NCBI GenBank assembly: GCA_017409215.1
Contig: JAFQTD010000015.1
Span: forward strand, 261-64,260
Direction: 5' to 3'
From: Alphaproteobacteria bacterium
Lineage (GTDB): Bacteria > Pseudomonadota > Alphaproteobacteria > Rs-D84
DNA length: 64,000 bases
Shown here: piece by piece, positions 7,764 through 39,497 of the stretch
How positions within the stretch are numbered: position 1 is the first letter of the stretch
Layout of the letters: each line of letters begins with the position of its first letter
Made by a program: the position numbers and the translations under genes
Notes under the pieces: generated by a model
What the model was told of the DNA's origin: nothing
Databases searched by the model: none
What the model saw: the letters and a program-made list of their open reading frames with translations, nothing else

Positions 7764-7837
7764 AAAACATCTTATTTACTTGACAACGGGGTCAGAAAAA
7801 AGTATAATTTGCCGGCATTAAAGAATACGGCAGTTTT

Positions 7838-7913: not shown

Positions 7914-8075
7914 AAATTACAACCGACCCTTGGGGTCGGTTTTAATTTTGCCTGTTCCCACCGAGACGAGAACCGCAGGTTCGGGGCGCCAGTTGGTGAA
8001 AACAAGTGTTAACGAAGTTTGAACCTTACGTAGCGAAAGGGGCCCATGGAGTGAAAACGGACATGGGAATCAGAC

Positions 8076-8201
8076 AATCCGGTTGGCCCTGCCAAAAATC
8101 AAAAACACCCGTTTGGGTGTTTTTTTGATTAGATTTCTAATAGTTCTGTGAGTTCGTAAGTTGATGGTTAAAAAATGCTACCGTTTCACACATTTACGAA
8201 C
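8076..8201 (+). repeat. cassette-array repeat R0 (tRNA-Glu 3'-end copy + terminator + right arm)
   Basis: AATCCGGTTGGCCCTGCCA (8076-8094) copies the tRNA-Glu 3' end with 2 mismatches. Followed by hairpin AACACCCGTTTGGGTGTT+T7, then TTCTAATAGTTCTGTGAGTTCGTAAG..CACATTTACGAAC. Confidence 0.8.
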
Positions 8202-8207
8202 TGTTTA

Positions 8208-8891
8208 TTATCTTATTTTACACCATTTGTCCAACAATATATTCAAATCATTCATATTGTTGCACACACCAAAAACACCATATTTTTTACATTCTGCTTC
8301 ATACGTTTTCGTATTATTACCCGTTGCACCAATAAATGCGATACAATCCATACCAGCAGCAGTTGCGGCCTTGAAATCATTAACACTGTCGCCAACGACT
8401 ATACAATTTTTTTGTGTATAACCTTTTGTGTTTGACGCTAATAAAAATAAATCTGGTGCAGGTTTGCCTTGTTTTACCATATCAACAGTAAAAAAATCTT
8501 GTTCGGATATATATTTTTTTATCCATTGAAATTGTGTCATTTTCCAAGCATGTTGTTCCTTTGTCGCACCAGTCGCAATACAATGTTCAAAATTATTATT
8601 AGCCATAACTTGTTCGACACCTGGTATAGGTTCCACAAGATTGGTACAAAATTCAAATTCCCGTTCATATATTTTTGCCATAAAATTATCATCAAGATTC
8701 AATCCGGGAATATAATTTTCCACTCTTTCCCGACAGGTTTTGTCCGAAACACCATAAAATAATTTTTGTTTTTCTGCTGGGTTTAATTCTATTTGTTTTT
8801 CAGATTTTAATATCTCATCCCATACCCGAACATGCAAATATTCGCTGTCTGCAATAACACCATCAAAATCCCAAATAAGTAATTTTTTCAT
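8208..8891 (-). CDS. HAD-superfamily hydrolase
   Basis: MKKLLIWDFDGVIADSE (DxDG motif I) and VGDSVNDFKAA (motif IV). Confidence 0.85.
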   Translation of the reverse strand: MKKLLIWDFDGVIADSEYLHVRVWDEILKSEKQIELNPAEKQKLFYGVSDKTCRERVENYIPGLNLDDNFMAKIYEREFEFCTNLVEPIPGVEQVMANNNFEHCIATGATKEQHAWKMTQFQWIKKYISEQDFFTVDMVKQGKPAPDLFLLASNTKGYTQKNCIVVGDSVNDFKAATAAGMDCIAFIGATGNNTKTYEAECKKYGVFGVCNNMNDLNILLDKWCKIR

Positions 8892-8916
8892 TTTTTACCT
8901 TTTTTGCACCTTGATA

Positions 8917-9141
8917 TCATTATAGTACAAATTGGCAAAAATCAAACTTTATTTAAAAACACCTTAATCTCTTTCCCGAACAACAACGAATCACGAATAA
9001 AATCAACTCGTAAATAGCACAGATGGCCCTGCAAAAAATCAAAAACACCCGTTTGGGTGTTTTTTTGATTAGATTTCTAATAGTTCTGTGAGTTCGTAAG
9101 CTGGGTATGAAAAACAGCTCCCTTTTTGCTGACTTGCGAAC
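8917..9141 (+). repeat. cassette-array repeat R1 (full)
   Basis: Left arm ..CTTTCCCGAACAACAACGAATCACGAATAAAAT.., core GATGGCCCTGCA (9022-9033). About 65 bp (9035-9100) appear identical to 8095-8160. Right arm GTTCGTAAGC..CTTGCGAAC. Confidence 0.8.
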
Positions 9142-9176
9142 TTTTTTGTGATATATTTAGATTGAAAGGTTAATAG

Positions 9177-9629
9177 ATGCAAATTATTGAATATTACAAA
9201 TCAAAAAATCAAGAACACTGGAAAAACGAAATAGGTAAAGGTGATTGGTCGGCTGCAAAACTTTTGTATTCTTGGTTAAATACCGATAAATTAAAACAAA
9301 TATGTGGAAAATCGACAAAGATTTTTCTACTTACAGATGGCGATAATTTGGTTTCTTTCGCAATCTTAGCCGAACAAGATGAAATCGATGCACCTGAATT
9401 ATCCCCATGGATTGGTTTTGCATATACTTTTCCAAAATATCGTGGTAATAACAATATCGGCAAATTGATAAATCGTATTTGCGATACATTAAAATCCAAT
9501 AAAATCGAAAAAGTATATATATCTACTGACCATATAGGTTTATACGAGAAATACGGTTTTGTATTCTGGAAAATTATGAACAACCGAGAAGGCAAACCAA
9601 CTAGAGTTTATATAAAAAATCTTAATTAA
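9177..9629 (+). CDS. GNAT family N-acetyltransferase
   Basis: 150 aa. FAYTFPKYRGNNNIGKLINRICD (acetyl-CoA-binding R/Q-x-x-G-x-G/A-like) and YEKYGF. Confidence 0.7.
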   Translation: MQIIEYYKSKNQEHWKNEIGKGDWSAAKLLYSWLNTDKLKQICGKSTKIFLLTDGDNLVSFAILAEQDEIDAPELSPWIGFAYTFPKYRGNNNIGKLINRICDTLKSNKIEKVYISTDHIGLYEKYGFVFWKIMNNREGKPTRVYIKNLN

Positions 9630-9639
9630 AGGTAATGAT

Positions 9640-10536
9640 ATGATTAGTCAAGTTATAGATGGAATAGAATTTAAATTAAAAGAATATCAGGATTTTTCTT
9701 GGTTAAATAATTATGGAACTGTGTTTAATGTTATAGATGAGACAGGTAGCGGATGTATATCTTTTGGTATAAAAAAGGACAATAAAAAATATTTCTTTAA
9801 GATTGCAGGTGCAAAAACAGTTAATGCTGAAATAAGCGAAGAAGAATCGATTAAATTATTAAAAGAAGCAGTAATAAAATACAAAGACATCAAAAATGAC
9901 AATTTGATCAAGTTGGTAGATGCTTTTGAATATAAAGATTTTTATGTCGTAATCTATGAATATGCCGAAGGAGAATGTTTATTTGATCATTGGAATTTTG
10001 ATAGATATGAAAAAACCAAAGAAATAACTCCTTTGATGAAATTCAAATCATTACCAGTAGAAAAAAGATTGAATGTTGTGGATAAGTTGTTTTCGTTTTT
10101 TGAATCATTTATTGACGCGGGATATGTTGCGGTAGATTTTTATGATAGTAGTATAATTTATGATTTTGATAATGATGAAGTCACTTTTTGTGATATAGAT
10201 TTATTTAGAAAAATGCCAACCGTAAATGATTTGGGAACAGGTTATTTTGGAACCAAAAGATTAAAAGCCCCCGAAGAAAACGAATTAGGTGCATCAATAG
10301 ACGAACAAACATCATTATTTACATTGGGTGCAATTATATTTGATATGTTTAGTAATGAATCAAATATAAAAGAACGGTATGCAAAGGGATGTTTTATTCC
10401 TAATAAAATAGATGAATTCGAACTAAATAATAGTGTTTATAATGTACTATTAAAAGCAACAGCATACAATAGAAATGATAGATATAAAACCATCAAAGAG
10501 TTCAAGGACGATTTTTATAAAAAAATTCATTTGTGA
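9640..10536 (+). CDS. protein-kinase-fold protein (Ser/Thr kinase-like)
   Basis: Gly-loop DETGSGCISFG, YFFKIAG (VAIK-like), hinge IYEYAEGE, catalytic-like VAVDFYDSSIIYD, FCDIDLF (DFG-like), KAPEE (APE), SLFTLGAIIFDMF. Confidence 0.7.
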   Translation: MISQVIDGIEFKLKEYQDFSWLNNYGTVFNVIDETGSGCISFGIKKDNKKYFFKIAGAKTVNAEISEEESIKLLKEAVIKYKDIKNDNLIKLVDAFEYKDFYVVIYEYAEGECLFDHWNFDRYEKTKEITPLMKFKSLPVEKRLNVVDKLFSFFESFIDAGYVAVDFYDSSIIYDFDNDEVTFCDIDLFRKMPTVNDLGTGYFGTKRLKAPEENELGASIDEQTSLFTLGAIIFDMFSNESNIKERYAKGCFIPNKIDEFELNNSVYNVLLKATAYNRNDRYKTIKEFKDDFYKKIHL

Positions 10537-18401: not shown

Positions 18402-21400
18402 TTAATACGATTGTAACAACAATTTATACTCTTTATCAATCACGTCAATAACTCCCCTGGCCTCGTCATCAGGATACTTCGACAAGTCATTCAACATTCT
18501 ATTATATTTTGCTGTAATTACATCATCTGTTGCCCCCGAATGCAATCCCCACTTCACCAAAACTTCTGACCGAGTTTGTGCATTGAAATCAATATTATAA
18601 TTTGCCCCTTGAACAAAATCAGCAAACCATTTCTTTCTTGCTCTTGACGACAAACCACTAGAAATTCCCGCATAATTATCAGAAAAAGCAAAAGCAGACT
18701 GCTCTGTTGGTCTAAGATAATAACCCGGACCATATGAAGAACTAATCCCGCCAAATAGTTCCGCGTTAACCAATTGTTCACCGATTGCCCCCTCATTCGG
18801 TGTAACGAAATCATTATAATGTATACCTTCATGCCCCGATACACCCAGCATCTGCCTACCACCTGCATCAATATATCTACTATCTGGATTTATATAAATG
18901 TAATGCTGTCCGTTAATAAGCTCATGTTTTATGACTCTCCCTGCTGATGTCATACCTCTTTTTATTACAACCTGCGGTGCCGGAATATTATTTTCTTTTG
19001 CAACAGCATTAAAAACACTTTGTAAAGAGCTTCTTAAATCGTCTTCATTAATCCAATTATCCAAAGCTTCTTGAACTGCTTTATCTTGACTAAGAACCCT
19101 ATCAAATATTTCTGTTTGCTTTACGGCATTTACCCTCATTCTGGGCAAGGGGGCGACCTCTGCAATATCTACATGATATTGCGCAGTAACCTCATTCTTT
19201 TTTGCAACAAGGGCCTTATAATCTTCCGACTCCCAGTATTTTTTCAACAAATCCTCTTCCGATAAACCGGGATTTTTTTCCCTAAAGCTATTAAAGAGAC
19301 GATTATAATCATCATCAAGTTCTTCTCTTATCGGCTTATATCGTGCATTAACATTTGAAACATCCAAATTAACAGTCGAATAGGAACGAGTAAAAGACGG
19401 ACTCATAACCGTTTCTTCCGCAAACATTTCTCTATACAAGTTTATTTTATCACCTGACCAACGACTAAAGTCACCAGAACCAGGTTTTTGTAGTTCACTT
19501 AAATATTGCCCCTTAAAAAGTCTATAATCATTTATATCAGACCCAGATTCTACAAACAAATCATTATAACGCATCATAGCAGAACGTTTGGCATCTCCAA
19601 GTTCTGAATTTTTAATCCATGTTTTTGCTTGTTCTTCTATAACAGCCAAATTATTATCAAACGAAGTCATAAAATCGTCAATAGATTGATTTTGTGGCGC
19701 ATAATCATCATACAGCTCAAGCCAACGTCTGCCCTCAGGTGTTTTATCCAATTCCTCTATACGAGCCAATTCTGCATTAGCAAGCTTTTCATTACGCAAT
19801 GCTATTCTTTCTGCACGCGTTAATCCAGATTCATCAACCACCCCAAGAACATCATCTGTCCCACCTGCTGCAAAGGCTGTAACATCATCTACCTTTTTCC
19901 TTAATACCCTTGTTGCCTCGGGTAAATCATCTGCCAATTTTGTATTTTTAAACAACGCGGTTCCACCAGATTTTACAAGTCCCACAGACTGCATTGCGAT
20001 GCCAACTGCGCGCCAAATTTCTGCTGCGTCATATCCGCCGTCATCAAAACCAGACAGACCCTGTTCTGCAATAATTCTGTAAAATTTGGATTCTGTCGGT
20101 ATCATTTCCGCCAATCGTGCCATTACTTTATCAATCATCAACGCTTCTGTTTTGGTCAACTCGTTTTCAATACGCGCCAAATGCACCAAATGTTCCTTTA
20201 TCAAACTTTCTGCACAAACTGCATCTTGACATTTATTACTTTCTACAAAAAAATCATCCGCCATACCATTAATTTTATGTTGCGCAATAATTTCCATTAC
20301 ACCACCAGCAGTCTCAACAACAACAATCGCTGGACTGTCACCGGTTCCAAAAGACACAACGGCACTTAGCAATGTTCCACCAACCATCAATGCAATATTT
20401 AGAGATTTTTCATGACGTGTAGCTGCCGCCCCATCCGGCAAAGTACAAATTTCATTTTCTGGATCCCATTCCACCAATCTGCATTCATGACAGCTTTCTA
20501 TATTTGCAGCACGCAATTTTAAGCACTCATCTTCATCCAGATGCATACAACGCTTGCCCGTATATTCACCACCTGCAATTATACAATCCATCGCCTGTTT
20601 CCCTGCACGTCTAAACTTACGTTTCCATTCAGACAAATCAGGAAAAACAAAATCAACAGGCTGACTATTTACATAACAGGTTAACACCTCGTCACGTTCA
20701 CCCTTATACATTATATGTCCTGTTGAATAATCGCAACTAAATGATTCTAAAACTATGTTCTTTTTGCCCATATATTCATTGAGATATTTTTTTACAAATG
20801 CTTCTATGCTCATATCCATTTGTGCCGTCACACCTAAAAACACATAATTATCAATACCGTATGCGGTGCGCAATTCGTTTGTGGTGCGAACTATTCCCGA
20901 CACTGTGCATAAATTATCGGAAACATCATCTGGATGTGGTAAATTCTGTTGTTCTAACAGCGGCCTAGTCTGAATACCAAGACCGACCTTCGCATTAACC
21001 CAATCTGTATAATTTTGTTTTGCCTTGGCATTTTTTACTATCTTGGATTCATAGCCCATTTTTTGCAATGTATTATTTATTTCGCTACATTTCTTATAAT
21101 CAGACACATTATATGCCGCAAATCCATCATCCCCGTCTTTGGTAATCGCTGAAATATCAGATATTCCTGTCAGTGTTTGCACATCATGCAATTTGCCAAC
21201 AGCATTTAACACACTATGCAAAATAGAATTATCTTCTGTCGTGGTCAGATTACCAAAATTAAATTCAAATTTATGATAATCATCCACACTGGAACACTTC
21301 AGGTATCTTTTACCACGTATATCTGATGAACAAACCGCTTTTATCCTGTGCTTTTTCAACAGATATTCCTTGGCCAAGGCGATTCCTTCGGGAATACGAA

Positions 21401-21755
21401 CCGTAGCGGAATTAAAAAGCTGCACACATTCACCAGATTCAACTGATACACCCTTGTCACAAACAGAATAAAATCTGGTCAATAAAATATCAATCACGCG
21501 CCCACACATTTCAGAATTCCAGCCCGCAGCATTACATGCCGCCCGCAATCCTGACTGATTAATCATACCTGTTTCGGTTAAATGCTGATTAAAGGCCTGT
21601 GCAAAGGCAGACATTTCTTGTTCCCTGCCCGCAAAAGCATCTTTTAACACATACTCTAAAACATCTGGATAGATAAAAACTTCTTTCTCAGAATCCGCAA
21701 ATGCACTGGTTGCACAAAACAAAGACAAAAATATCGCAAATATTTTCTTTATCAT
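18402..21755 (-). CDS. large secreted Cys-rich protein with C-terminal HEXXH (zincin-like) motif
   Basis: Signal MIKKIFAIFLSLFCATSAFA. Many Cys in the first ~450 aa. GVSGHEGIHYNDF near the C-terminus. The start ATG overlaps the upstream stop (ATGA). Confidence 0.6.
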   Translation of the reverse strand: MIKKIFAIFLSLFCATSAFADSEKEVFIYPDVLEYVLKDAFAGREQEMSAFAQAFNQHLTETGMINQSGLRAACNAAGWNSEMCGRVIDILLTRFYSVCDKGVSVESGECVQLFNSATVRIPEGIALAKEYLLKKHRIKAVCSSDIRGKRYLKCSSVDDYHKFEFNFGNLTTTEDNSILHSVLNAVGKLHDVQTLTGISDISAITKDGDDGFAAYNVSDYKKCSEINNTLQKMGYESKIVKNAKAKQNYTDWVNAKVGLGIQTRPLLEQQNLPHPDDVSDNLCTVSGIVRTTNELRTAYGIDNYVFLGVTAQMDMSIEAFVKKYLNEYMGKKNIVLESFSCDYSTGHIMYKGERDEVLTCYVNSQPVDFVFPDLSEWKRKFRRAGKQAMDCIIAGGEYTGKRCMHLDEDECLKLRAANIESCHECRLVEWDPENEICTLPDGAAATRHEKSLNIALMVGGTLLSAVVSFGTGDSPAIVVVETAGGVMEIIAQHKINGMADDFFVESNKCQDAVCAESLIKEHLVHLARIENELTKTEALMIDKVMARLAEMIPTESKFYRIIAEQGLSGFDDGGYDAAEIWRAVGIAMQSVGLVKSGGTALFKNTKLADDLPEATRVLRKKVDDVTAFAAGGTDDVLGVVDESGLTRAERIALRNEKLANAELARIEELDKTPEGRRWLELYDDYAPQNQSIDDFMTSFDNNLAVIEEQAKTWIKNSELGDAKRSAMMRYNDLFVESGSDINDYRLFKGQYLSELQKPGSGDFSRWSGDKINLYREMFAEETVMSPSFTRSYSTVNLDVSNVNARYKPIREELDDDYNRLFNSFREKNPGLSEEDLLKKYWESEDYKALVAKKNEVTAQYHVDIAEVAPLPRMRVNAVKQTEIFDRVLSQDKAVQEALDNWINEDDLRSSLQSVFNAVAKENNIPAPQVVIKRGMTSAGRVIKHELINGQHYIYINPDSRYIDAGGRQMLGVSGHEGIHYNDFVTPNEGAIGEQLVNAELFGGISSSYGPGYYLRPTEQSAFAFSDNYAGISSGLSSRARKKWFADFVQGANYNIDFNAQTRSEVLVKWGLHSGATDDVITAKYNRMLNDLSKYPDDEARGVIDVIDKEYKLLLQSY

Positions 21756-22696
21756 TTCAACACCCCCGTACATTTTGCCGCGACTTCGGCAACCTTTTTT
21801 ATCGCGGATATTTGCGTCGCGTTAAATACAGTCGCAACACCACCAGCCACCGCAGATGCCCCAGCCAACACATTCGATGCAGTATTTAAATTTTTTTCTT
21901 TATCACTACGTGTCCCATCTGTATTTTTTTGCGACAAAATATTTTTACTGTTTGCCATCGCACTGGTCGTGGTACCCGCCAACCCAGCCACAGCACCAAC
22001 CCCAGATGAAATCATTGCACCTTTGCCACGTGTATTAATCTTGGATAAATCAACATATTCAAATTCACTGCAGACCGATTCAATAGATTGCGCTTCGGTC
22101 ACGTCTTCGCCATTTATACGCGCCTGCATAATTGCAGTACGCAGGTTCGAAACACTTTCCTTGCACGAATTTATCTGCGCGTCTAAATCGCCATCAACCT
22201 TATTTTTTGCCGCAATAATTGTACCTGCAACATTTGCAACTGTACCTGTTGCCATTAACCCAGTGCGCCAATTGCCCAGCTTCTTGGATTTATCTTGTAA
22301 TTGCGACAGTTCAGAAGACGAAGATGCGCCACCCACCGCAGAAGATATCGATTTAACAATCTCTTCTTTATCTTCATTTGATAAATCTCGTTCAGCGTTA
22401 TTATTACGCTGTTGTTCTGCCGTACGCAGTTTTGTGATTAATTCATCTATTTCTTTATCGATTTGTTCTTTTTTTATGCCAACGGCAACCGCGCCAACAC
22501 CAGTTGCAGCACCAACACCAGTTATCGCGGTGTTTATACCGGCCATTTTCTTTAAATCAGTCAATTCTTCATCAATGCCAACACAGGCTGTATATGTCGC
22601 ACGCAACGCATCATTCAGTGTCAGCACACTCGCAGCCGCGGGGAAAGAGGGTAAAAACGCAGTAATTACAACAAGCAAGCTTATTTTAGTCTTCAT
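21752..22696 (-). CDS. secreted protein with four Gly/Ala-rich glycine-zipper-like segments and coiled-coil spacers
   Basis: Start at MKTKISLLVVITAFLPSFPAAASV. Segments GVGAATGVGAVAVGI, GLMATGTVANVAGTIIAA, SSGVGAVAGLAGTTTSA and LAGASAVAGGVATV. Confidence 0.55.
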   Translation of the reverse strand: MKTKISLLVVITAFLPSFPAAASVLTLNDALRATYTACVGIDEELTDLKKMAGINTAITGVGAATGVGAVAVGIKKEQIDKEIDELITKLRTAEQQRNNNAERDLSNEDKEEIVKSISSAVGGASSSSELSQLQDKSKKLGNWRTGLMATGTVANVAGTIIAAKNKVDGDLDAQINSCKESVSNLRTAIMQARINGEDVTEAQSIESVCSEFEYVDLSKINTRGKGAMISSGVGAVAGLAGTTTSAMANSKNILSQKNTDGTRSDKEKNLNTASNVLAGASAVAGGVATVFNATQISAIKKVAEVAAKCTGVLK

Positions 22697-22957
22697 AACA
22701 TTCCTCAACAACAATGTTTGTATTATAGCATATATACCATACAAAAAAAAGAAATAACCGCCCAAATGGGGGTGTTTGATTTTTGTGGCGGAATATGATT
22801 TTGTTACGAACAACCACATACAAATTCCGACTTTTACAGGGAATTTACAGGGATTTTTTGATATAATATTTATATCATCTGGGAACTATCTGGGAAAAAT
22901 ATTGACTTTCTGGGAATTATTTGGTAAAATCTGGTAAAAATATTAAAAGGATTTAGT

Positions 22958-24016
22958 ATGCCTAATAATAGAGATATTGTTATAACCCCAGAAATGCTGA
23001 ACAGCATTGCCGAGATTGATGCATTTAATGGTGCGTGGACCGGCGGGGCAGTAAAACTGTCCGCGGACGATCTGCGTGTTATGCGTCGTGTTGCAACAAT
23101 TGAATCTGTCGGATCATCTAATCGTATAGAAGGCAATCGTATGACAGACACTGAAATTGAGGCATTGTTTGCCAATATCAATCGTCAGTCATTTGCCACC
23201 AGAGACGAGCAGGAAGTTGCCGGATATTCAGATGTAATCAATACCATATTTGAAAACTATGCGTCTATACCGCTTAGTGAGAATTATATTAAGCAGTTGC
23301 ATAAAATATTATTGAATTACTCTGACAAAGACACCCGCCATCGTGGCGAATATAAAAAAGACAGCAACCGTGTTGCTGCATTTGACGCAAACGGTAATGA
23401 AATCGGTTCTATATTCGAAACCGCTACACCATTTGATACGCCACGCCTGATGAGTGAAACAGTAAAATGGACCAATGATGTGTTGGCCGACAAATTCTTT
23501 CACCCTATTATTGCCATTGGTGTGTTTGTGATACATTTTCTGTCCATCCATCCATTTACCGATGGTAATGGGCGTTTGTCGCGCGCATTGACTGTTATGC
23601 TGATGCTGAAAAGTGGATATACATATATGCCATATGCATCTATGGAATCTATTATAGAAGCGACCAAGGACGCATACTATCGTGCATTACGTGGCACACA
23701 AAAAACCATCTGGGGCGACAAGATCAACTATGAACCATGGCTGACTTTCTTTGTTCGTGCATTGGTTGCACAAAAACGCCAGCTGGAAGACAAAATCGCA
23801 AAAGTACGTGGCGCAAGTGCGGCAAAACTGTCTGCAACACAGAATCAGATTTTGGAACTGTTTCATAAAACACCAGAATTGACCATGCCACAGATTGTAT
23901 CTGCGATGGATAAAAATCCAGAAACCATTCGCAAGGCGGTACACGCATTGGTTAAACGGGGACACATATCAAAACAAGGTACAACCCGTGGTGTGTTTTA
24001 CACTTTGCATAAATAA
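22958..24016 (+). CDS. Fic family protein with C-terminal winged-helix
   Basis: HPFTDGNGRLSRAL (Fic motif HPFxxGNGR). C-terminal ..ETIRKAVHALVKRGHISKQG is wHTH-like. Confidence 0.9.
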   Translation: MPNNRDIVITPEMLNSIAEIDAFNGAWTGGAVKLSADDLRVMRRVATIESVGSSNRIEGNRMTDTEIEALFANINRQSFATRDEQEVAGYSDVINTIFENYASIPLSENYIKQLHKILLNYSDKDTRHRGEYKKDSNRVAAFDANGNEIGSIFETATPFDTPRLMSETVKWTNDVLADKFFHPIIAIGVFVIHFLSIHPFTDGNGRLSRALTVMLMLKSGYTYMPYASMESIIEATKDAYYRALRGTQKTIWGDKINYEPWLTFFVRALVAQKRQLEDKIAKVRGASAAKLSATQNQILELFHKTPELTMPQIVSAMDKNPETIRKAVHALVKRGHISKQGTTRGVFYTLHK

Positions 24017-24064: not shown

Positions 24065-25419
24065 ACCTATTTTGGAAAGATTAATCGCATTTGATATAAT
24101 AAAGCGGTATTCATGAAAGGCGCACAGGTGTTATAGGTTGCTTCTCAAATCATCTTTGATATAATAAACATTTGAAGAACAACTGGCCGAGGTGCGTTAT
24201 AGGTTGCTTCTCAAATCGTCTTTGATATAATGCGAATGATATTGCGTGTGTCCAATGCGGAGTTATAGGTTGCTTCTCAAATCGTCTTTGATATAATGCA
24301 CGTGTATAACACATATCGTTATAATCAGTTATAGGTTGCTTCTCAAATCGTCTTTGATATAATCGTTGAACAATGCACAGGATTAAAGGACAAGTTATAG
24401 GTTGCTTCTCAAATCGTCTTTGATATAATTAATATCATAACGGCGCCGCGCGCAAGCAAGTTATAGGTTGCTTCTCAAATCGTCTTTGATATAATTTTAA
24501 ATAGGTTTTAAATAGGTTTTAACAGGTTATAGGTTGCTTCTCAAATCGTCTTTGATATAATGCCCTGCTCCACGGCATATCGAAAGCCGGCGTTATAGGT
24601 TGCTTCTCAAATCGTCTTTGATATAATGAACAAATTCGGCGCAAAAAAAATAACCATGTTATAGGTTGCTTCTCAAATCGTCTTTGATATAATAATGGCT
24701 AATACTTGGTATGTACTGAAATAGTTATAGGTTGCTTCTCAAATCGTCTTTGATATAATATATAGACTGCTTTTAATCCGTATGCAGTAGTTATAGGTTG
24801 CTTCTCAAATCGTCTTTGATATAATGGATAAAACAAAAAAAACACAAAAAAATAAGTTATAGGTTGCTTCTCAAATCGTCTTTGATATAATTACAAGTGC
24901 AACCGGGAGACACTTGGAAAAGTTATAGGTTGCTTCTCAAATCGTCTTTGATATAATTACTGGGGTCAATTAATCAAACTGCTTTAAGTTATAGGTTGCT
25001 TCTCAAATCGTCTTTGATATAATTGCCCTGCTCTACGCCATTCGTAAGGCGATGTTATAGGTTGCTTCTCAAATCGTCTTTGATATAATCATTCAAAGAA
25101 GATGCACTTAAATATATAAGTTATAGGTTGCTTCTCAAATCGTCTTTGATATAATGAACTGGAAGATGTATTCGGTAAAAACGCGGTTATAGGTTGCTTC
25201 TCAAATCGTCTTTGATATAATTCGAACGTATCGAACATTTGAATGCAGACGGTTATAGGTTGCTTCTCAAATCGTCTTTGATATAATCAGATGATGCTTT
25301 GGCAACATTAAGCATATGTTATAGGTTGCTTCTCAAATCGTCTTTGATATAATCGTTTTGCAGGATTTCTTCGGTTTCACTGCGTTATAGGTTGCTTCTC
25401 AAATCGTCTTTGATATAAT
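24065..25419 (+). CRISPR. CRISPR array: 20 x 36-bp repeat GTTATAGGTTGCTTCTCAAATCGTCTTTGATATAAT, 19 x 30-bp spacers, plus one degenerate terminal repeat
   Basis: Repeats start at 24130+66k (k=0..19). 19 are identical and the first carries G>A at 24152. A degenerate copy at 24065-24100 keeps only ..AATCG.(A/C)TTTGATATAAT. Confidence 0.98.
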
Positions 25420-26819: not shown

Positions 26820-29744
26820 TTATTTTTTATTTACAACTGGTGTGCGCACTTCGGGCAATTTTACCGTCTTGATGTTTCCAAGGACAGTGATCACATATTT
26901 TTGTATATCCGCACACGAACCAACCGATTTTGTTATTACTGGTCTATTTTTATTATCCTGATGATACAACACAAAATTTCGACCATGATCCATTTGGGTT
27001 ATATAACCTTCAAATTCTTCGCCTGCATGTGTTTTAATTTTTATATAATCGTCTTTGTGCAGAGTGCAGACAAATTCTGCATTAGGAACCATGAATTTTG
27101 TATCGTCCCTGGACACGACATCTGATACAAAAATCGGTACACAGGTGTATTTGCCTGTATTCATCCGCCAAATATCAAAACGAAACATATCGCCACGAAC
27201 AGCGTTGCCAAAACGTATTTTCATACTGCCTTTGGCCCCCATTTTATTTTTTCCTTTCTTGGTACGATATGATTTGGGATTTATATAAATCGTTTCATTA
27301 TGCGCCGATCCTGTAGCGTTGCAACGCGGGGGACGAGAAACTGTAATCTTATCTAATGCGGTCAGAACATCATTGCGAAAGGTTGGCCATGGCGACTGTA
27401 TAGCTTTTTTAAGCGATACGTACCACGCTTCGCCGTTTTCGCCAATTAATCTGGTCTTGTTTTCAAACTTACCAGACAGAGTTGACAGATAACGAACCAT
27501 ATCTTGGGTTGCGCATGCAATTACAATCGCATCTTGGGCATGATGTTTGTCAGATTCTTCACGGTTTTTACTTAACCCCCACTGATGACGCAGATAGTCC
27601 GTCAGTGCCCCCGTCCGGACTAATACACGCATTTTGTTATTATTTGTTGTTGGCCATTTTATGCCTTGGGTCAAGTACTGGGCTGCAAAACGGGCAATCG
27701 TTGCATTGTCGTTCGCATTGCGGGCGATAAAGTCATTTTGTTCGCCACTGCTGGATGGTAAATCCGTGTTCGTTAATTTTCTGAACTTGGCCATATTATG
27801 ATAACCCCGTGCACGCATGGTCATTTCATAAAACTTTGTCTGGTCCAGATATTCATACGGTGTTTTACTGCCCTTGGACTGATTACATGTGCGACAGACC
27901 AAGACCTTGTTAGATTGCAAATTGTCAAATGAACGTGAATACGGCAAGATGTGGTCAATTTCGTACGCATCCCAATTGTTCGCATCAATAGATGCGCCAC
28001 AGTATGGACATTGACAATGTTGTTCCATATACAGTTTGTATTTTTTGGCGTTTTTGCCATGTTCTTGATGTGCGGCCTCGTTTGCGGCACGATTCCGTTC
28101 GTTTTCTTTTTGTAACTGCGCCAATTCTTTGGGAGACTTTTTTAATTCACGCCCTATCTCTAAATGAATTTTGTCGGGCGCGCCATAACGATACACCATC
28201 GCATTATAAACACGACGCAATTGCGACAATGTACGACGTGCCACAGGTGATGTTAAGCGTTTACCAAGAACTGACCAATCTATCTGGCGCAACATGCCGT
28301 CTGCAACATCATCAGACATATCAATAAAACTATCACCTGTGCTGCGATGATCCCATTTATTTACTTCGCATGCCTGGGCATACGTTTTGCCGACACGCAT
28401 TTCTGGGATTAATTTATGCAACGCGGACAATGATAAGTTCAAAAATTCAGACGTACTTAGTTGTGAAATCGCATCTGCATGTTCAGGTAAATATGCTGAC
28501 ACCGCTTGTTTGATATAATCCGGTGTTTTTTCAGTTGCTAATATTTCATATATTTTATCCATCAAATCGATATCGTCAGTAAAAGGCAACAAGGTATGAT
28601 AACCGCTGAATGGCTTGCCAAACGAAACTTTTTCAACATCAGAAATTTTGGGTTCAATCCAATTTTTTTGTTCTTTGTCGTATTTACGTGAATAATTCAG
28701 TGCCTTGAACCGATAATCATCATCAAATTTTAATAATTTACGGACATCCGAATATTTTAAACCGGTTTTCTTTTTATACAATGCGTCCAACACTAATTCT
28801 ATTTGTTCAGGGTTCAGACCATTTTGACTGCATGTTGACAGCGCCACAAACAACTGGGCCGATGGCGCCCCCTTGGGCGCAACAGGTTCACCGGTAAATT
28901 TGCATACCCCACGCATAGACGCCACAGAACGATATAATGGCGAGCCTGATTCATTGAACTTGCGCTGACGCGAGGCAATCGGATACCACACATCAAATAC
29001 CGCAGTAAAATCATTGCCAAATGTTTTCTGTGCCGCTAATATCATTCGCGCTTCACGGAAAATTTCAGAACGCGGGATGGAATTTGTGTAGGAGGACTCT
29101 TCACTTGTTTTTACTTCGCCCTTTGCGCTGATTTTTGTGATGATCTTTTTTTGGTTGCGCATTTGTTTCGGGGCTTTGGCGTACAAAACCTGACATAGCG
29201 TTTTGCTATCATCCGATTGAGCCAACAATGCAAGATTATCCGCAATACAACCAATCGCCTTAAATTCTTCTTTGGCATCTGGAGCGACTGTGTCTGCCGT
29301 CTTGGCCACACCAACAGGATATGTAATATCGTCATAACCGCGGTGTTTTGCCAAGTGGTATAAAATACGCCCTGTTTCACGTGGTGTTAATTTCCGCTGA
29401 AACGCATCAACCGCGCGCAACTGCCAGATATTGACATCTGAATCACGGTTCAAATAAAAGTTATTATGACCATTTTGTTTTGGTTCGGGGATATCTATCA
29501 TATTTGCCGATCGCAACAACGCACGAATTTCACGCATACGCAATGCACGATGACGCAAACGACGACGCATACAACGAGCAACACGTCTATCTGCGGCATT
29601 TGTCGCAGCCGTAAAGCAACGTACACCACACCCCAAGATTTTACTGCCTAAAAAACCTTGATTTTCGTCTATCGTATCAGATATTTCTGTTGCAGCCCAC
29701 CCAATACTGGCGATTCCCAAATCAAAACCAAATATTTTAGCCAT
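26820..29744 (-). CDS. cas9: Cas9, compact type II-C-like (974 aa)
   Basis: RuvC-I FGFDLGIASIGWA, Arg-rich bridge helix RRVARCMRRRLRHRALRMREIR, HNH YEIDHILPYSRSFDNLQSNKVLVCRTCNQSKG, RuvC-III HHAQDAIVIA. Confidence 0.95.
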   Translation of the reverse strand: MAKIFGFDLGIASIGWAATEISDTIDENQGFLGSKILGCGVRCFTAATNAADRRVARCMRRRLRHRALRMREIRALLRSANMIDIPEPKQNGHNNFYLNRDSDVNIWQLRAVDAFQRKLTPRETGRILYHLAKHRGYDDITYPVGVAKTADTVAPDAKEEFKAIGCIADNLALLAQSDDSKTLCQVLYAKAPKQMRNQKKIITKISAKGEVKTSEESSYTNSIPRSEIFREARMILAAQKTFGNDFTAVFDVWYPIASRQRKFNESGSPLYRSVASMRGVCKFTGEPVAPKGAPSAQLFVALSTCSQNGLNPEQIELVLDALYKKKTGLKYSDVRKLLKFDDDYRFKALNYSRKYDKEQKNWIEPKISDVEKVSFGKPFSGYHTLLPFTDDIDLMDKIYEILATEKTPDYIKQAVSAYLPEHADAISQLSTSEFLNLSLSALHKLIPEMRVGKTYAQACEVNKWDHRSTGDSFIDMSDDVADGMLRQIDWSVLGKRLTSPVARRTLSQLRRVYNAMVYRYGAPDKIHLEIGRELKKSPKELAQLQKENERNRAANEAAHQEHGKNAKKYKLYMEQHCQCPYCGASIDANNWDAYEIDHILPYSRSFDNLQSNKVLVCRTCNQSKGSKTPYEYLDQTKFYEMTMRARGYHNMAKFRKLTNTDLPSSSGEQNDFIARNANDNATIARFAAQYLTQGIKWPTTNNNKMRVLVRTGALTDYLRHQWGLSKNREESDKHHAQDAIVIACATQDMVRYLSTLSGKFENKTRLIGENGEAWYVSLKKAIQSPWPTFRNDVLTALDKITVSRPPRCNATGSAHNETIYINPKSYRTKKGKNKMGAKGSMKIRFGNAVRGDMFRFDIWRMNTGKYTCVPIFVSDVVSRDDTKFMVPNAEFVCTLHKDDYIKIKTHAGEEFEGYITQMDHGRNFVLYHQDNKNRPVITKSVGSCADIQKYVITVLGNIKTVKLPEVRTPVVNKK

Positions 29745-35250: not shown

Positions 35251-35526
35251 TTATAATCCACTTTTTCCGTATACAATCTTAAAATTCCAGCGTTTCTTTT
35301 TGCGAACACAAAAGTGCGGGCGGTCGGAATCAATGATAAAAACAATCTTGCCAATCCAAATTCTGAAATATCTTGCATGCACTTTCTTGAATTTCACCGG
35401 TTCATGGGTTCGCATTTCTGTGCCGTCAGTGTATTCATACTCTGTGCTGCGCCCAAATCCATATTTATTATTATCAAAGTCCAGTCCGTATTCAGTGAAT
35501 ATCTTTTTTACTTTTGGCATTTGCAA
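35251..35526 (-). CDS. hypothetical basic protein
   Basis: 91-aa ORF, 8 nt downstream of the kinase gene. No recognisable motif. Confidence 0.4.
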   Translation of the reverse strand: MQMPKVKKIFTEYGLDFDNNKYGFGRSTEYEYTDGTEMRTHEPVKFKKVHARYFRIWIGKIVFIIDSDRPHFCVRKKKRWNFKIVYGKSGL

Positions 35527-35533
35527 CTAACCT

Positions 35534-36058
35534 TTATCTTTGTTTGGTAACAAAATCTGCAATTTGTTGGGCAGTCTGGTGCGGTGTCTGTCCGTCATTG
35601 TTTATTATCAAATCTGATTTTTTCGGTCTGTGATAATTTTCATTATACATTTCACGTATACGCCCAATTTCCCAGTCGGTCAATGTACGTGTTCCACGAT
35701 TGGTTAAACACTTTTCCAAACTGGGCGCCAGTGTAACTGCAATAAAACGTGTGTTCTTATCAATATGGGCCGACCAGCGCCGATACAAATTTTCTGTCAT
35801 TGGATACGCAAAAATAATTGTTTCGTATTGGCGTTGATTTTTTTGGTCGGCAATAATTCTATCCAATCGGTTCAGGCGTTCGCCCCAGCCGGCCTGCATG
35901 GTCAAACCTAATTTTTTCTCTTTATCATCTGACAACAGGTCATCAACTTCTATAAAAACTGCGTGTGGCAACATTTGCACTAATTGTTTTGATACCGTTG
36001 ATTTCCCAGAATTTATCGGTCCGTTGATATTCAGAATCAGCATTGTTTCCTCCCCCAT
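35534..36058 (-). CDS. P-loop (AAA/adenylate-kinase-like) kinase
   Basis: Walker A NGPINSGKST, ~170 aa. Overlaps the CYTH gene end. Confidence 0.6.
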   Translation of the reverse strand: MGEETMLILNINGPINSGKSTVSKQLVQMLPHAVFIEVDDLLSDDKEKKLGLTMQAGWGERLNRLDRIIADQKNQRQYETIIFAYPMTENLYRRWSAHIDKNTRFIAVTLAPSLEKCLTNRGTRTLTDWEIGRIREMYNENYHRPKKSDLIINNDGQTPHQTAQQIADFVTKQR

Positions 36059-36609
36059 TGTTTCTTGCGCAACATCAGTTCTGGTTTGCCGGCATTCAAT
36101 TCAGGTGACACAGCAAAGCCCAAATTATCAATAAAGGATTGAATCTGTGATTTTATTTGCGCCACATCTACGTCATCAGGGGTGCAATATTCAACTTCTA
36201 AAAACAGCCCCAGATCTGCCACAGTTTCAAATTCAATTGTATAATCGCCGGCACGATATGTTCGTTTCAGATTATCAATTTTTATCAATTCACGCAGTCC
36301 CAGCGCATGCATAATTTCGCACATTGTGGACATGTCTGCGACGGTTGTTTCCGCTTCGTCAGAATAAAGCCATGTATCGCCATCAAAATGGTCATTCTTA
36401 TATGTGATATAATTCACCCCGTCTTTTTGACGTGTGCGACAGCATGCATACAGGTGGCCGTTGCCGTCCGGCTGTAATTCGGGACGTAATGGGTCATAAT
36501 AGTATGTATCAACCGTTCGTTTATCGCCCAGGAATTCAAATTTAGACAACTTACGCAGAACGTCTGCTTCGTCGGCAAAAACCTGAACCAAGATTTCAAT
36601 TTCTTTCAT
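36037..36609 (-). CDS. CYTH domain protein (class IV adenylyl cyclase/triphosphatase family)
   Basis: MKEIEILVQV (ExExK-like start), ..YTIEFETVADLGLFLEVEY. Confidence 0.65.
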   Translation of the reverse strand: MKEIEILVQVFADEADVLRKLSKFEFLGDKRTVDTYYYDPLRPELQPDGNGHLYACCRTRQKDGVNYITYKNDHFDGDTWLYSDEAETTVADMSTMCEIMHALGLRELIKIDNLKRTYRAGDYTIEFETVADLGLFLEVEYCTPDDVDVAQIKSQIQSFIDNLGFAVSPELNAGKPELMLRKKQWGRKQC

Positions 36610-36612
36610 AAG

Positions 36613-37216
36613 ATGCACCCTTTGCGATATTCTAAACCGCTTTTTCAGAAATATCAATATTTTCCAACGGAATATAATGTCTGTGACATAATTAGGTCTG
36701 CCGGTAATTGTGGGTGGGATGACCTGTCATACCTGCAAAGGCGGGAATTAGTTCGCGTTATGATTGAACGAGCAACTTATTCGCAAGAACAACTGATATT
36801 CTGCATCAATGTCAACCCACAGTTGTATAATTCATTTTTATCCACATATCATATCAATCATAATAACAGTCCAATGGAATATACGGTCAACGGTGATAAT
36901 GTGACGATTGTGCGACCGGTTGTACTGCGCCGATATACCAACACCAGATTTGGCGGGGGGGCGTAATGACACGCTGAGCATTACAGAAAACAACCACCTG
37001 ATATTAAAGGCCTTTGCCACCGCGTGGCGGTATAGGGAAATGTATGAACGTGGTGGCGACGTAGATTCTATTGGCCGAACCGAACATGTTGCCCTGCGCC
37101 ATGTGTACCGATGTTTAGAGGTGGCGTACATGAACCCAACCAAAGTAAACAAAATCCTATCCGGCAAACTAAAAACAAACGTTAATGATTTGCATAAAGT
37201 TGCAAAAGAAGGTTAG
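36613..37216 (+). pseudogene. C-terminal remnant of a serine recombinase, frameshifted in a G7 run
   Basis: ..HLILKAFATAWRYREMYERGGDVDSIGRTEHVALRHVYRCLEVAYMNPTKVNKILSG resembles the conserved recombinase tail (..LLKALARAHRW..ML..G...SI.ELA..EG...SYV.R.LRL..LAPDIV.AIL.G). Two frames join at GGGGGGG 36955-36961. No catalytic N-terminal domain. Confidence 0.6.
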
Positions 37217-37219
37217 ATA

Positions 37220-38731
37220 TTATGATTCAACTAAATAACGCGTGTCAGTTCTAGTCATTTCTAATATTTTATCAAACTTATCTTGAGAAATACGATAAAA
37301 ACCTCTTGGCATGTTTTCAATAGACAGAACATCTGCATCACATAATGCTTTTAAATTGACCTTTGGAATAGGAAAGGAATAAGTATATAAGAATTCAACA
37401 ATAAAAGGTCTATGTCTGATATTATAATTCCAATGTCGTTCTAATTCAGAATCGGTAAAAATAGTTCTACGTTTACAACAATCTTTAAACTCATCTAAAG
37501 TGCGTGGATATAATATTCTGTTGACTACACCTATTGTCGTAATGACACCCTGATACAATCCGCCGGTACGATAAAAAATGATATTGTCACCTTGTTGTAA
37601 ATCTTTAAAAATAGATCTTGAAATATATACTTTTGTAATCGCATTTCTGAATGGTTCATTTTCTTGAAAATCGTACGGAGATTCGTTATTTAATATTGAA
37701 TCAGGGAGTAACGATGTATGATATTGTGGATATATTGGACAAATATAAGCGTCGGAATATTTATTAAATAAAGGAAACGTGTGTTTAGGGTTTCTTTTAT
37801 CAAATGCTTTTGTCATATTACGGACATAGACCCCTTCAACATTATTTTTAGTGCCCCAACGATAAAAACCAAAATCTTGTAATTGTCTTACTAATGCCTG
37901 TTTAGGCAAGTCGTTTTCATCAGAATCAAATATTGTTACATAGATTTCATCTACATTCATATTTACAGCATTATCAAATGCTATTTTTAAGAATCTTTCA
38001 CCAAGTTTAAGTCCATTCATAGCTACTTTGAAAGTGCCAATTTTTAAACGTCTTTTGGGTGGCAATATTGGAACTATATTTGAATAGTTCTCGTCTTCAT
38101 TTTCCTGTTTTAAATACAAAAAAGCTTTTAAAGAATCGCCTAGATAACAAACATATGCATCTTCTTGTGATTTTTTGTTTAACCAAGCATCAAAACCTTC
38201 ATAACTTTCGCGCAAACTGTCAAAAAATTTATCTCTGATATTAATATCTCCAATTTTCTTTTTCCTAACAGCTAGCACATTATAATCTATTAAAGATGGG
38301 TGTTCAGACAGCATCTTTTCAGAGAAACTTTCTATTGAAAAGACTTTATCTGCTATACCCAAATATTGTGCTTTTTTGTATAATCCGCGGTCTTCCGTTA
38401 TAAAAGTATCAACTCTACCACAGTATAATTCATTTAATATTTTGGTATCATTCTGAGAATTAATATCCTTGTCTGATTTTAGTAAGTTGGATACTTGTTC
38501 TGCTAGTGATGCCAGAGCAGTTAGTTTATTATAGGAACCTAGTTTTGATAAAATTACTTCCCTTTTTTCTACAGCTCCATATTGTGCGATTTCTTGTTCT
38601 GATATGGGGTGAATATATTTGTCATAATGCAGTTTATCCAACCAATTGAACAAATCCGGAGTGTTCGGATTCAAGATGCGATCCGTTTCTCTATATATAA
38701 TGATATTTGTATCAAGCAATACCTTTGGCAT
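37220..38731 (-). CDS. three-part protein: N-terminal PIN nuclease domain, central GNAT-like region, C-terminal PUA/EVE/ASCH-like region
   Basis: MPKVLLDTNIIIY and ..TFITEDRGL (PIN acidic residues). Central ..LKIGTFKV..GLKLGERFLKIAFDNAV.. is GNAT-like. C-terminal ..GDNIIFYRTGG..GVITTIGVV.. is PUA-like. Confidence 0.55.
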   Translation of the reverse strand: MPKVLLDTNIIIYRETDRILNPNTPDLFNWLDKLHYDKYIHPISEQEIAQYGAVEKREVILSKLGSYNKLTALASLAEQVSNLLKSDKDINSQNDTKILNELYCGRVDTFITEDRGLYKKAQYLGIADKVFSIESFSEKMLSEHPSLIDYNVLAVRKKKIGDINIRDKFFDSLRESYEGFDAWLNKKSQEDAYVCYLGDSLKAFLYLKQENEDENYSNIVPILPPKRRLKIGTFKVAMNGLKLGERFLKIAFDNAVNMNVDEIYVTIFDSDENDLPKQALVRQLQDFGFYRWGTKNNVEGVYVRNMTKAFDKRNPKHTFPLFNKYSDAYICPIYPQYHTSLLPDSILNNESPYDFQENEPFRNAITKVYISRSIFKDLQQGDNIIFYRTGGLYQGVITTIGVVNRILYPRTLDEFKDCCKRRTIFTDSELERHWNYNIRHRPFIVEFLYTYSFPIPKVNLKALCDADVLSIENMPRGFYRISQDKFDKILEMTRTDTRYLVES

Positions 38732-38799
38732 GTAAATAAAATCCTATTACAGGTAATATTTAGTCAAAAGCACGCACAAATCAAGGTATAAAATAATTT

Positions 38800-39186
38800 C
38801 TATCTAGACAAATACACAAAAGATTGTGGGGCCACAGAAACACCAAAAGAACTTAACGTTCTTGGTTTTTTATATTTTTTTACATTTCCCAATTTATAAG
38901 CTACGGATTTCGAACGACCAGAATAGTAAGAATCATAAAAATCTTTAGAAACACCGGCTTTTTTCATTGTTTTTCTCCAAACTGCTGCGGGTGTATCTTC
39001 TATAATTTCAATAATATCAGCTTCGCCAATCACTTTCATAACAGGCGAAGTGCAATAAATTATCATCTTGTTTACATCAGATTTACAACGATTTTTACGA
39101 AATTCAAATTCTTTTTCACCAGAGAAAATTTTTTCCACATATTCTGGGTTGATGGACAAAAGCACCCTACACATAATTCTCTCCAT
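38800..39186 (-). CDS. ASCH domain protein
   Basis: LLSINPEYVEKIFSGEKEFEFRKN..MIIYCTSPVMKVIGEADI.. Confidence 0.7.
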   Translation of the reverse strand: MERIMCRVLLSINPEYVEKIFSGEKEFEFRKNRCKSDVNKMIIYCTSPVMKVIGEADIIEIIEDTPAAVWRKTMKKAGVSKDFYDSYYSGRSKSVAYKLGNVKKYKKPRTLSSFGVSVAPQSFVYLSR

Positions 39187-39203
39187 TTTTTTATGTTGAG
39201 ATA

Positions 39204-39214
39204 ATTATATCACA
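39204..39214 (-). promoter_or_regulatory. extended -10 promoter (TGTGATATAAT) of the ASCH/PIN operon
   Basis: The reverse complement of ATTATATCACA is TGTGATATAAT, ~20 nt upstream of the RBS GGAGAG and the ATG at 39186. Confidence 0.5.
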
Positions 39215-39406
39215 AAATGACATTTTTTTCCACAGCTTTTTATGTGTAACTGGCATCAGATTTTTGGGCAAAGTATATAAGGTGTATGAAATTGGGAGGC
39301 ATGGATGCAACTAGCGATATATGCTGGTAATATCATCCACAAAAACTGCCGGAAACTGGGCAAAAAAGAACATCCCGTGGGATTGCCACGGGATGTCTAA
39401 TTTTAC

Positions 39407-39497
39407 TGGCGGAGATGAAGGGATTCGAACCCTTGATACGGTTGCCCGTATACCACATTTCCAATGTGGCGCACTAGACCAACTATGCGACATCTCC
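39407..39497 (-). tRNA. tRNA-Ser (GGA)
   Basis: Reverse complement GGAGATGTCGCATAGTTGGTCTAGTGCGCCACATTGGAAATGTGG + long variable arm TATACGGGCAACCGTATC + AAGGGTTCGAATCCCTTCATCTCCGCCA. Terminator hairpin at 39371-39395. Confidence 0.95.

Follow-up and report, generated by a model that had tools for sequence, protein, structure and literature searches.

A PIN-GNAT-EVE protein and its ASCH partner in an alphaproteobacterial contig: a mobile cassette and candidate toxin-antitoxin or defence module

Whether two adjacent genes that combine nuclease-like, acetyltransferase-like and PUA-like folds form a toxin-antitoxin or defence system, and whether such a system is new, is the question raised by a locus of the alphaproteobacterial contig JAFQTD010000015.1 (assembly GCA_017409215.1). 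We analysed a stretch of 64,000 nucleotides (nt) of this contig, called the window below, in which a gene for a small ASCH protein is followed by a gene for a protein of 503 amino acids (aa). A first-pass annotation of the DNA had proposed that the two genes form a module of an ASCH protein and a fusion of PIN, GNAT-like and PUA-like parts, and had regarded it as an uncharacterised candidate of the defence or toxin-antitoxin type. The locus almost certainly belongs to the (PIN-)GNAT-EVE plus ASCH module, which is catalogued by PADLOC as PDC-M11. The candidate status agrees with three independent sources, namely PADLOC, the literature and the GenBank annotation of PIN-less phage homologues; the novelty does not, since the architecture had already been described. 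We consider it fairly probable that the module works as a toxin-antitoxin or defence system. The parts of the locus are as follows.

38800..39186, minus strand: ASCH gene, a 128-aa open reading frame (ORF) in the ORF list
37220..38731, minus strand: large gene, a 503-aa ORF in the ORF list
38732..38799, minus strand: intergenic spacer of 68 nt, from the ASCH gene to the large gene
38288..38731, minus strand: PIN domain, aa 1-148, with the tetrad D7, E47, D95 and D114
37757..38287, minus strand: GNAT-like acetyltransferase domain, approximately aa 149-325
37220..37756, minus strand: PUA/EVE-like C-terminal domain, approximately aa 326-503 plus the stop codon
39204..39232, minus strand: cassette promoter, TGGAAA, 17 nt and a TG-extended -10 element, TGATATAAT

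The module and its predicted domains

Both proteins matched PADLOC families of the same system over their full length. The large protein was recognised by PDC-M11A (PDLC04422, E 8.9e-190), with residues 3-501 aligned to positions 2-500 of the 501-position profile, and the small protein by PDC-M11B (PDLC04425, E 2.8e-45). The two genes lie on the same strand, 68 nt apart, in keeping with the adjacency that defines PDC-M11. PDC-M11 is one of 145 'phage defence candidate' systems, described as untested, which guilt-by-embedding drew from genes located inside BREX, DISARM and type I restriction-modification loci (Payne et al., bioRxiv 10.1101/2024.01.29.577857). The PIN-GNAT-EVE fusion was described by Bell, Wolf and Koonin in 2020 (PMC7641849, hereafter Bell 2020), who reported that an ASCH protein is present in nearly all of its operons, often joined by an AAA_17 ATPase, that PIN-containing forms occur near type I restriction-modification and CRISPR-Cas loci and PIN-less forms in prophages, and that an ASCH-HsdS fusion exists. 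The first description, together with a proposal of DNA-base acetylation, is credited in Bell 2020 to Iyer et al. 2013. The module was thus previously described and catalogued, and is bioinformatically not an uncharacterised kind.

The window shares with the operons of Bell 2020 the three-domain fusion, the ASCH neighbour and the proximity to CRISPR-Cas, other defence genes and mobile elements. However, it carries no helix-turn-helix (HTH) domain on the ASCH protein and no type I restriction-modification genes nearby, and the cassette holds no homologue of the AAA_17 ATPase, a frequent but not obligatory operon member; a P-loop kinase 1.2 kb off is unrelated.

The large protein was modelled with AlphaFold2 from a 30-sequence alignment (predicted local distance difference test score, pLDDT, 83; predicted template modelling score, pTM, 0.70), and its PIN region, residues 1-148, was modelled separately with fragments of proteins from the homology search (pLDDT 90). 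A Foldseek search with residues 1-148 retrieved VapC toxins, Utp24/Fcf1, protein-only RNase P (HARP) and SMG6, all of which are PIN domains. The residues D7, E47, D95 and D114 stood at the expected positions of the PIN acidic tetrad and were invariant in the 30 sequences, which are 51-83% identical to the window protein. By sequence, Pfam PIN_3 was matched by 17 of these 30 family members, and the window protein matched a TIGR PIN model at E 0.023. Searches of PDB sequences with a full-family profile and with an N-terminal profile gave nothing significant, the best hint being the PIN protein 1o4w (E 1.4), and the PIN call therefore rests on structure prediction. The closest structural matches were VapC proteins of M. 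tuberculosis and Rickettsia, which agree with the window domain in fold, topology and the four acidic residues. The system is not VapBC, however, because the window PIN domain is fused to GNAT and EVE parts and its partner is an ASCH protein instead of the small DNA-binding VapB.

For the central region, a Foldseek search of the full model against the PDB retrieved GNAT proteins (2oh1, PaiA, Naa50/60 and Ard1) with target-normalised TM scores of 0.55-0.69, and a search against viral structures (BFVD) retrieved only generic GNATs. In the 30-sequence alignment this region contains an invariant LKIGT, G240, the loop G244-E-R-F and the motif B residues G288-F289.

The C-terminal domain was matched in the same PDB search by the ASCH protein of Zymomonas mobilis, ZmASCH (5y6c and 5gus), with target-normalised TM scores of 0.68-0.71, and it holds the invariant stretch YHTxLxPDSIL..ESP. 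Pfam EVE scored 14.3 bits against the window protein, below its cut-off of 23, and matched four of the 30 relatives (best E 1e-4). An hhalign comparison of this domain with the family of ASCH partners gave an alignment that was topologically sensible but not significant (E 0.026, probability 1.9%). The PUA-like fold is thus supported by the structural model, and its assignment to the EVE subfamily follows the literature (Bell 2020). All three domain readings of the first-pass annotation, a canonical PIN N-terminus, a GNAT-like centre and a C-terminal barrel of the PUA/EVE/ASCH type, agreed with these searches.

The small protein had been called ASCH, and this identity was confirmed by Pfam ASCH (PF04266, 22.3 bits against a cut-off of 21.2) and by a phmmer match to ZmASCH in the PDB (E 2e-9). 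Its octapeptide, G23-E-K25-E-F-E28-F-R30, is of the GKER type. Across 77 partner ASCH proteins, K25, E28 and R30 were 100% conserved, Y44 (equivalent to ZmASCH Tyr47) was 98% conserved and the C-terminal PQS motif 96-98%. The annotation had drawn an analogy to E. coli YqfB, which does not apply, because Glu28 occupies the position of the Thr/Ser nucleophile in the GK[T/S]R octapeptide of YqfB-type proteins. With ZmASCH (Z. mobilis ZMO0922; PDB 5GUS, 5GUQ and 5Y6C) the window protein shares the GxKxxExR octapeptide, the Tyr47-equivalent tyrosine and probably the C-terminal serine. A Pfam scan showed no DNA-binding domain in the window ASCH protein. As a side observation, NCBIfam PRK12279 matched the ASCH protein at E 5.5e-17 through the C-terminal 'unknown domain' of a ribosomal protein L22 fusion, which hints that this ASCH subfamily may act at the ribosome or on rRNA.

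The two ORFs and the 68-nt gap between them were as first annotated, but the ASCH protein is probably shorter than the 128 aa proposed. The second ATG (39174) follows a GGAGAG Shine-Dalgarno sequence, the related locus L003 lacks the first one, and close ASCH homologues are 124 aa long; the true start is therefore probably the ATG at 39174, giving a protein of 124 aa. The extended -10 promoter predicted before the gene was supported: the site at 39232..39204 was a joint best in the regional scan (10/12) and the sole top scorer with a TG extension. In an alignment of five related cassettes, the -35 element, TGnTATAAT, the GGAGAG sequence and the ATG after it were invariant, and the DNA farther upstream was unrelated. 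The 68-nt spacer was inspected on the minus strand for a terminator-like site, and none was seen. A 26-nt repeat with palindromic ends around the promoter was considered as an operator and dropped, as it is not kept in more distant cassettes. Upstream, outside the system, lie two features.

39407..39497, minus strand: tRNA-Ser(GGA), the upstream neighbour of the cassette
39369..39397, minus strand: strong terminator that closes off the tRNA-Ser gene

This terminator and the promoter of the pair together indicate that the cassette has its own transcription signal. Searches around the cassette for repeats of the tRNA-Ser 3' end, of the integration-site type, found none. The G+C content is 0.32-0.33 across the gene pair, compared with approximately 0.42 in the flanks.

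Gene linkage, partner exchange and mobility

Homologues of the large protein formed more than 5,293 clusters, and the top 120 were almost all full-length and at least 50% identical. Among contigs chosen as one genome per species, the protein occurred in many bacterial phyla and also in archaea (Altiarchaeota, Nanoarchaeota, Bathyarchaeia and Methanoperedens), where identity remained about 50%. The ASCH gene lay on the same strand in 76 of 80 related loci, and in one more its first 25 codons were present at a contig end. As the other three loci were uninformative, the ASCH gene was found at 77 of 77 informative loci, which confirms the annotated two-gene module as a recurring unit. The two reading frames overlap in 65 of the 76 loci, the ASCH gene beginning before the large gene has ended, most commonly with 23 nt in common, an arrangement that suggests coupled expression.

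No large protein without an ASCH partner was found among the 77 informative loci. ASCH proteins do occur without the large protein. ZmASCH matches the hidden Markov model of PDC-M11B (E 3e-29) and, unlike the window ASCH protein, is an orphan with no GNAT-EVE neighbour; it was considered as a member of a GNAT-EVE pair and rejected, since its 375-aa neighbour is unrelated. A Desulfosporosinus (D. meridiei) homologue is likewise an orphan. Such an asymmetry, in which the large protein always has an ASCH partner and the ASCH protein is sometimes alone, is as expected of a dangerous protein and its antidote. The ASCH protein also accompanies the PIN-less GNAT-EVE form, and its partner is therefore the GNAT-EVE core.

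A PIN-less pair is named 'GevT toxin' and 'GevA antitoxin' in GenBank PV340567.1 (the lambdoid Escherichia phage PhiR47_2), where it lies directly after cI. Compared with the window pair, GevA shows 50% identity to the ASCH protein (E 3e-43) and GevT 36% identity over aa 154-502 of the large protein, and the two phage proteins fall into the same PADLOC families. GevT differs in that it has no PIN domain, and the phage order is GevT then GevA, with overlapping genes. The GevT/GevA pair was present in 275 of 5,426 complete E. coli genomes (5%) at 99% identity or more, where RefSeq calls it 'hypothetical protein | ASCH domain-containing protein'. Forms with and without the PIN domain also occur on plasmids, next to genes for ASCH or HTH-domain proteins.

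Several variants of the module were seen in passing. In five loci of Flavobacterium, Hymenobacter and Limnohabitans (L030, L039, L044, L046 and L066), a third gene lies between the large gene and the ASCH gene in a gap of approximately 955-984 nt, encoding about 270 aa in L030, which makes a three-gene version of the module. Operons in the order AAA_17, (PIN-)GNAT-EVE and ASCH were found in L088 (Paenibacillus whitsoniae, 7465..9849) and L099 (2416..4372), with starts and stops that overlap or lie within about 16 nt; the former adjoins an integrase and the latter is inside a phage-like region. The only PIN-containing phage match was in Methanothermobacter phage psiM100 (record positions 8236..9453), as ORFD of the 'inserted fragment IFa', which fits a module that travels as a small insertion cassette.

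The window differs from the other PDC-M11 loci in its ASCH-first order, its 68-nt gap and its own promoter. Only L001 and L003, the two loci most closely related to the window, share its upstream ASCH gene with a gap of about 70 nt, an order that is reversed relative to 73 of the 76 loci; L002, with a large protein 62% identical to that of the window, keeps the usual one. Compared with partners of PIN-type proteins from beyond its own clade (that of L001 and L003), the ASCH protein of the window reaches at most 49% identity, but it is 57-65% identical to ASCH proteins encoded after PIN-less GNAT-EVE genes of 356-364 aa (L095, L097 and L099); in one PIN-less locus of that ASCH group, AAA_17 and terminase genes give a phage-like setting. 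For the large protein the affinity is reversed, with about 50% identity to PIN-type proteins and 31% to a PIN-less one. Because the ASCH protein resembles PIN-less partners while the large protein resembles the PIN type, the ASCH gene was probably replaced when the gene order changed. The window clade thus pairs a host-type PIN-GNAT-EVE protein with an ASCH protein of the phage GevA type, and the partners therefore appear interchangeable.

Comparison with L003, a goat-gut alphaproteobacterial metagenome-assembled genome whose cas9 is 98% identical to that of the window, revealed that the pair moves as a unit together with a recombinase remnant.

36960..39281, no strand assigned: cassette shared with L003, approximately 2.3 kb at 92% nucleotide identity
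36613..37216, plus strand: C-terminal relic of a large serine recombinase, frameshifted; it runs towards the large gene and ends 3 nt short of that gene's stop codon

In L003 the cassette lies at another site, approximately 100-400 bp upstream of cas9 and not beside tRNA-Ser. A 94% identical copy of the recombinase relic stands beside the pair there as well; the homologous segment, L003 1214..1933, follows a resolvase-type ORF at 1764..2855. The first-pass annotation had placed the pair beside CRISPR-Cas and a recombinase relic. The relic is there, but Cas9 lies 7.5 kb from the pair in the window, with tyrS and other housekeeping genes in between; close contact with cas9 is a feature of L003.

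Identity to L003 was uneven along the cassette. From the promoter through the ASCH gene, the PIN domain and most of the GNAT domain it was mostly 95-100% (with one 100-nt stretch of the GNAT region at 88%), it fell to 63-88% over 37933..37234 (approximately aa 267-500, the EVE region), and it returned to 99% in the recombinase relic. Synonymous divergence was 0.026 for the ASCH gene versus 0.353 for the large gene, and P0010 showed a similar domain-wise discordance. Since no other part of the protein is as well conserved across the whole family as the EVE domain, the local drop reflects recombination between alleles rather than general hypervariability, and this pattern indicates an exchange of the putative reader domain (aa ~267-500). 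Both genes are under purifying selection, with ratios of nonsynonymous to synonymous substitution of 0.06-0.27; together with the PADLOC matches, this speaks against ORFs that arose by chance.

Mode of action and competing explanations

We lean, by a modest degree, towards the reading that the pair is a toxin-antitoxin-like conflict module or an abortive-defence module with the ASCH protein as an enzymatic antidote. The 503-aa protein would then be a dangerous effector, possibly toxic to the cell, and the module may have an anti-phage function. Its EVE-like barrel would dock on a conserved nucleic acid, with tRNA or rRNA favoured, at a nucleotide that is probably modified; the GNAT domain would put an acetyl group on that target, and the PIN domain would cut RNA. 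The ASCH protein, as a GKER-type hydrolase, would neutralise the effector; the simplest ways would be to strip off the acetyl mark or to occupy the same site. DarT is a toxin that modifies nucleic acid and DarG is the antitoxin that removes the mark; an ASCH protein acting as an enzymatic antitoxin would follow a comparable logic.

Three observations favour an RNA target: the nuclease is a VapC/Fcf1-type PIN domain, those ASCH relatives that have been studied work on RNA or tRNA, and a fusion to L22 is known. Since its catalytic residues are strictly conserved, the ASCH protein is more likely an enzyme than a mere binder. In a 2026 preprint, 19 ASCH proteins including ZmASCH stripped N4-acetylcytidine (ac4C) from tRNA in vitro, and the Lys and Glu of the octapeptide were essential for this deacetylation in GKER-type ASCH proteins (bioRxiv 10.64898/2026.02.27.708502). 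These in vitro activities lend the idea of a writer and an eraser indirect support. That an acetyl mark on RNA is written by the effector and erased by the ASCH protein is a tentative detail, clearly less probable than the conflict role itself. The complete circuit, an immune or addiction system built on reversible acetylation of RNA or DNA in which the GNAT domain writes, the EVE domain reads, the PIN domain cuts and the ASCH protein erases, is more doubtful again. Given the interchangeable partners, host and phage versions might cross-neutralise each other, the host ASCH protein acting against phage GevT or phage GevA against the host effector.

Several observations weigh against the reading as a conflict module with an enzymatic antidote. 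As for the acetyltransferase, no Pfam acetyltransferase model matched the window protein or its 30 relatives, and the loop expected to hold acetyl-CoA, G240...G244-E-R-F, differs from the canonical Q/RxxGxG/A, so that it is the fold that points to acetyl-CoA binding. The GNAT fold is known in the toxins TacT, AtaT and ItaT; the window module, however, has no ribbon-helix-helix antitoxin, and its best structural matches were N-terminal and polyamine acetyltransferases, with tRNA-acetylating toxins not among the top ones. As for the eraser, ZmASCH did not significantly lower ac4C in vivo (bioRxiv 10.64898/2026.02.27.708502), and an earlier paper ascribed to ZmASCH a weak Mg2+-dependent cleavage of single-stranded RNA. 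Several homologous loci lie among housekeeping genes, not in defence islands, some of them beside rho, lon and pnp. None of these modules had been characterised according to Bell 2020, and a literature search on PDC-M11, PIN-GNAT-EVE and GevT/GevA found no experimental study of any member; it yielded Bell 2020, the preprint of that paper and one incidental mention of PDC-M11 in a study of E. coli O157. The name 'GevT toxin' is a database label, for which the search found no publication. Finally, HTH-ASCH fusions in alphaproteobacterial operons fit a DNA-binding regulator as well as an enzyme.

These fusions speak for an ordinary type II toxin-antitoxin system, the strongest of the competing explanations, which we regard as unlikely. 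Here the ASCH protein would be a non-enzymatic antitoxin or autoregulator that binds the large protein, the promoter or both, the PIN RNase would be toxic with or without the GNAT domain, and the EVE domain would only target the toxin. The confirmed VapC-like fold would suit such a system, as would the placing of the antidote gene first in the window clade, behind a strong and conserved promoter of its own, and the toxin and antitoxin names given in GenBank. However, the Lys-Glu-Arg octapeptide, Tyr44 and PQS are conserved at 96-100% in the 77 partners, as expected of an enzyme and needless for a plain binder. Moreover, the presence of ASCH proteins beside PIN-less forms shows that they are not PIN-specific inhibitors, and the window ASCH protein has no DNA-binding domain recognised by Pfam.

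A system acting on DNA, akin to modification and restriction, appears less probable than that. The GNAT domain would mark a DNA base, the EVE and ASCH domains would read modified DNA, and a nuclease would act on marked or unmarked invader DNA. Such a view goes back to the Iyer 2013 proposal as cited in Bell 2020 (PMC7641849), and it would account for the embedding of the module in type I restriction-modification loci, the ASCH-HsdS fusion reported there and the DNA methyltransferases beside close relatives. EVE and other PUA-like readers also serve DNA-cutting type IV restriction enzymes; in modification-dependent enzymes such as the EVE-HNH protein VcaM4I, a PUA-superfamily reader is likewise fused to a nuclease. 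The window nuclease, however, is of the RNase-type PIN family and not HNH or PD-(D/E)xK, and an acetyltransferase stands between reader and nuclease. Its fold is that of VapC and Fcf1, and the characterised relatives among the Foldseek matches cut RNA. In addition, the closest ASCH proteins that have been studied bind RNA or tRNA and act on it, and they left DNA uncleaved; no DNA nuclease, helicase or translocase is conserved with the module in related loci.

We give still less weight to a gene pair that serves its mobile element, through superinfection exclusion, counter-defence or an addiction that stabilises the cassette. PIN-less pairs do lie in the lambdoid immunity region and in other prophages, including the 275 of 5426 E. 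coli genomes above; the window ASCH protein is closest to phage-type partners, the cassette moves and carries a recombinase relic, and close relatives stand beside terminase, ParB-methyltransferase and DUF5906 genes. However, the window cassette is outside a prophage and its recombinase is degraded, and both genes are still under purifying selection. This explanation also overlaps with the conflict module more than it excludes it.

A housekeeping role, in which a writer-nuclease and an eraser of tRNA or rRNA acetylation tune translation with no part in conflict, is very improbable: it would suit the tRNA ac4C erasure by ASCH proteins (bioRxiv 10.64898/2026.02.27.708502), the housekeeping surroundings of ZmASCH and of the loci beside rho, lon and pnp, and the high conservation across domains of life, but the distribution is patchy, the identity of about 50% over unrelated phyla and archaea points to horizontal transfer, the low-GC cassette changes position between near-identical genomes, the alleles of the large protein are mosaic, and the module occurs in phages and plasmids.

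Neighbouring genes and meaning for the family

The window also carries a type II CRISPR-Cas locus and other genes in the region before the cassette.

26820..29744: Cas9 of the type II CRISPR-Cas system, 974 aa
25854..26768: Cas1 of the same system
24130..25419: CRISPR array with a 36-nt repeat and a period of 66
22958..24016: SoFic homologue (PADLOC E 2.7e-49), beside the type II CRISPR-Cas genes

L003 has no equivalent of the cas1 region, and of the array it retains only a 160-bp remnant, which lies between cas9 and the Fic gene. The segment 18302..22760 is a 4.5-kb insertion relative to L003, where its flanks are joined directly; it lies between an ABC-type ATPase and SoFic and adjoins the CRISPR array. 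It contains two overlapping minus-strand ORFs, 18402..21773 (1123 aa) and 21752..22819 (355 aa), with no Pfam or PADLOC match, and may be unknown cargo of a defence island.

Between tyrS and the cassette lies a CYTH/kinase module that is absent from all 80 related loci. In it, the genes for a CYTH-domain protein (36037..36657, minus strand) and a P-loop kinase of 174 aa (35534..36058; AAA_33, also matched weakly as a pVip kinase) overlap, and a DUF3977 ORF is at 35251..35526. The kinase and CYTH genes (35534..36657) were considered as the AAA_17 accessory and rejected, as they have no homologues in the 80 loci and no similarity to the Paenibacillus AAA_17 protein. Beside close relatives of the pair, Fic and HNH genes were found in addition to the DNA methyltransferase, DUF5906, terminase and ParB-methyltransferase genes.

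The family is very widespread across bacterial phyla and archaea, and an identity of about 50% between phyla is unusually high for a mobile module. To this picture the present locus adds that the ASCH partner can be swapped between PIN-containing and PIN-less lineages, that the putative reader domain appears to have been exchanged by recombination, and that the pair moves as a 2.3-kb cassette in a defence-rich region. The four predicted activities combined would form a circuit of writer, reader, eraser and nuclease on nucleic acid, and the 2026 evidence for tRNA ac4C deacetylation by GKER-type ASCH proteins makes this idea directly testable. If it is true, the acetylation circuit would be the first defence system that uses nucleic-acid acetylation as its signal.

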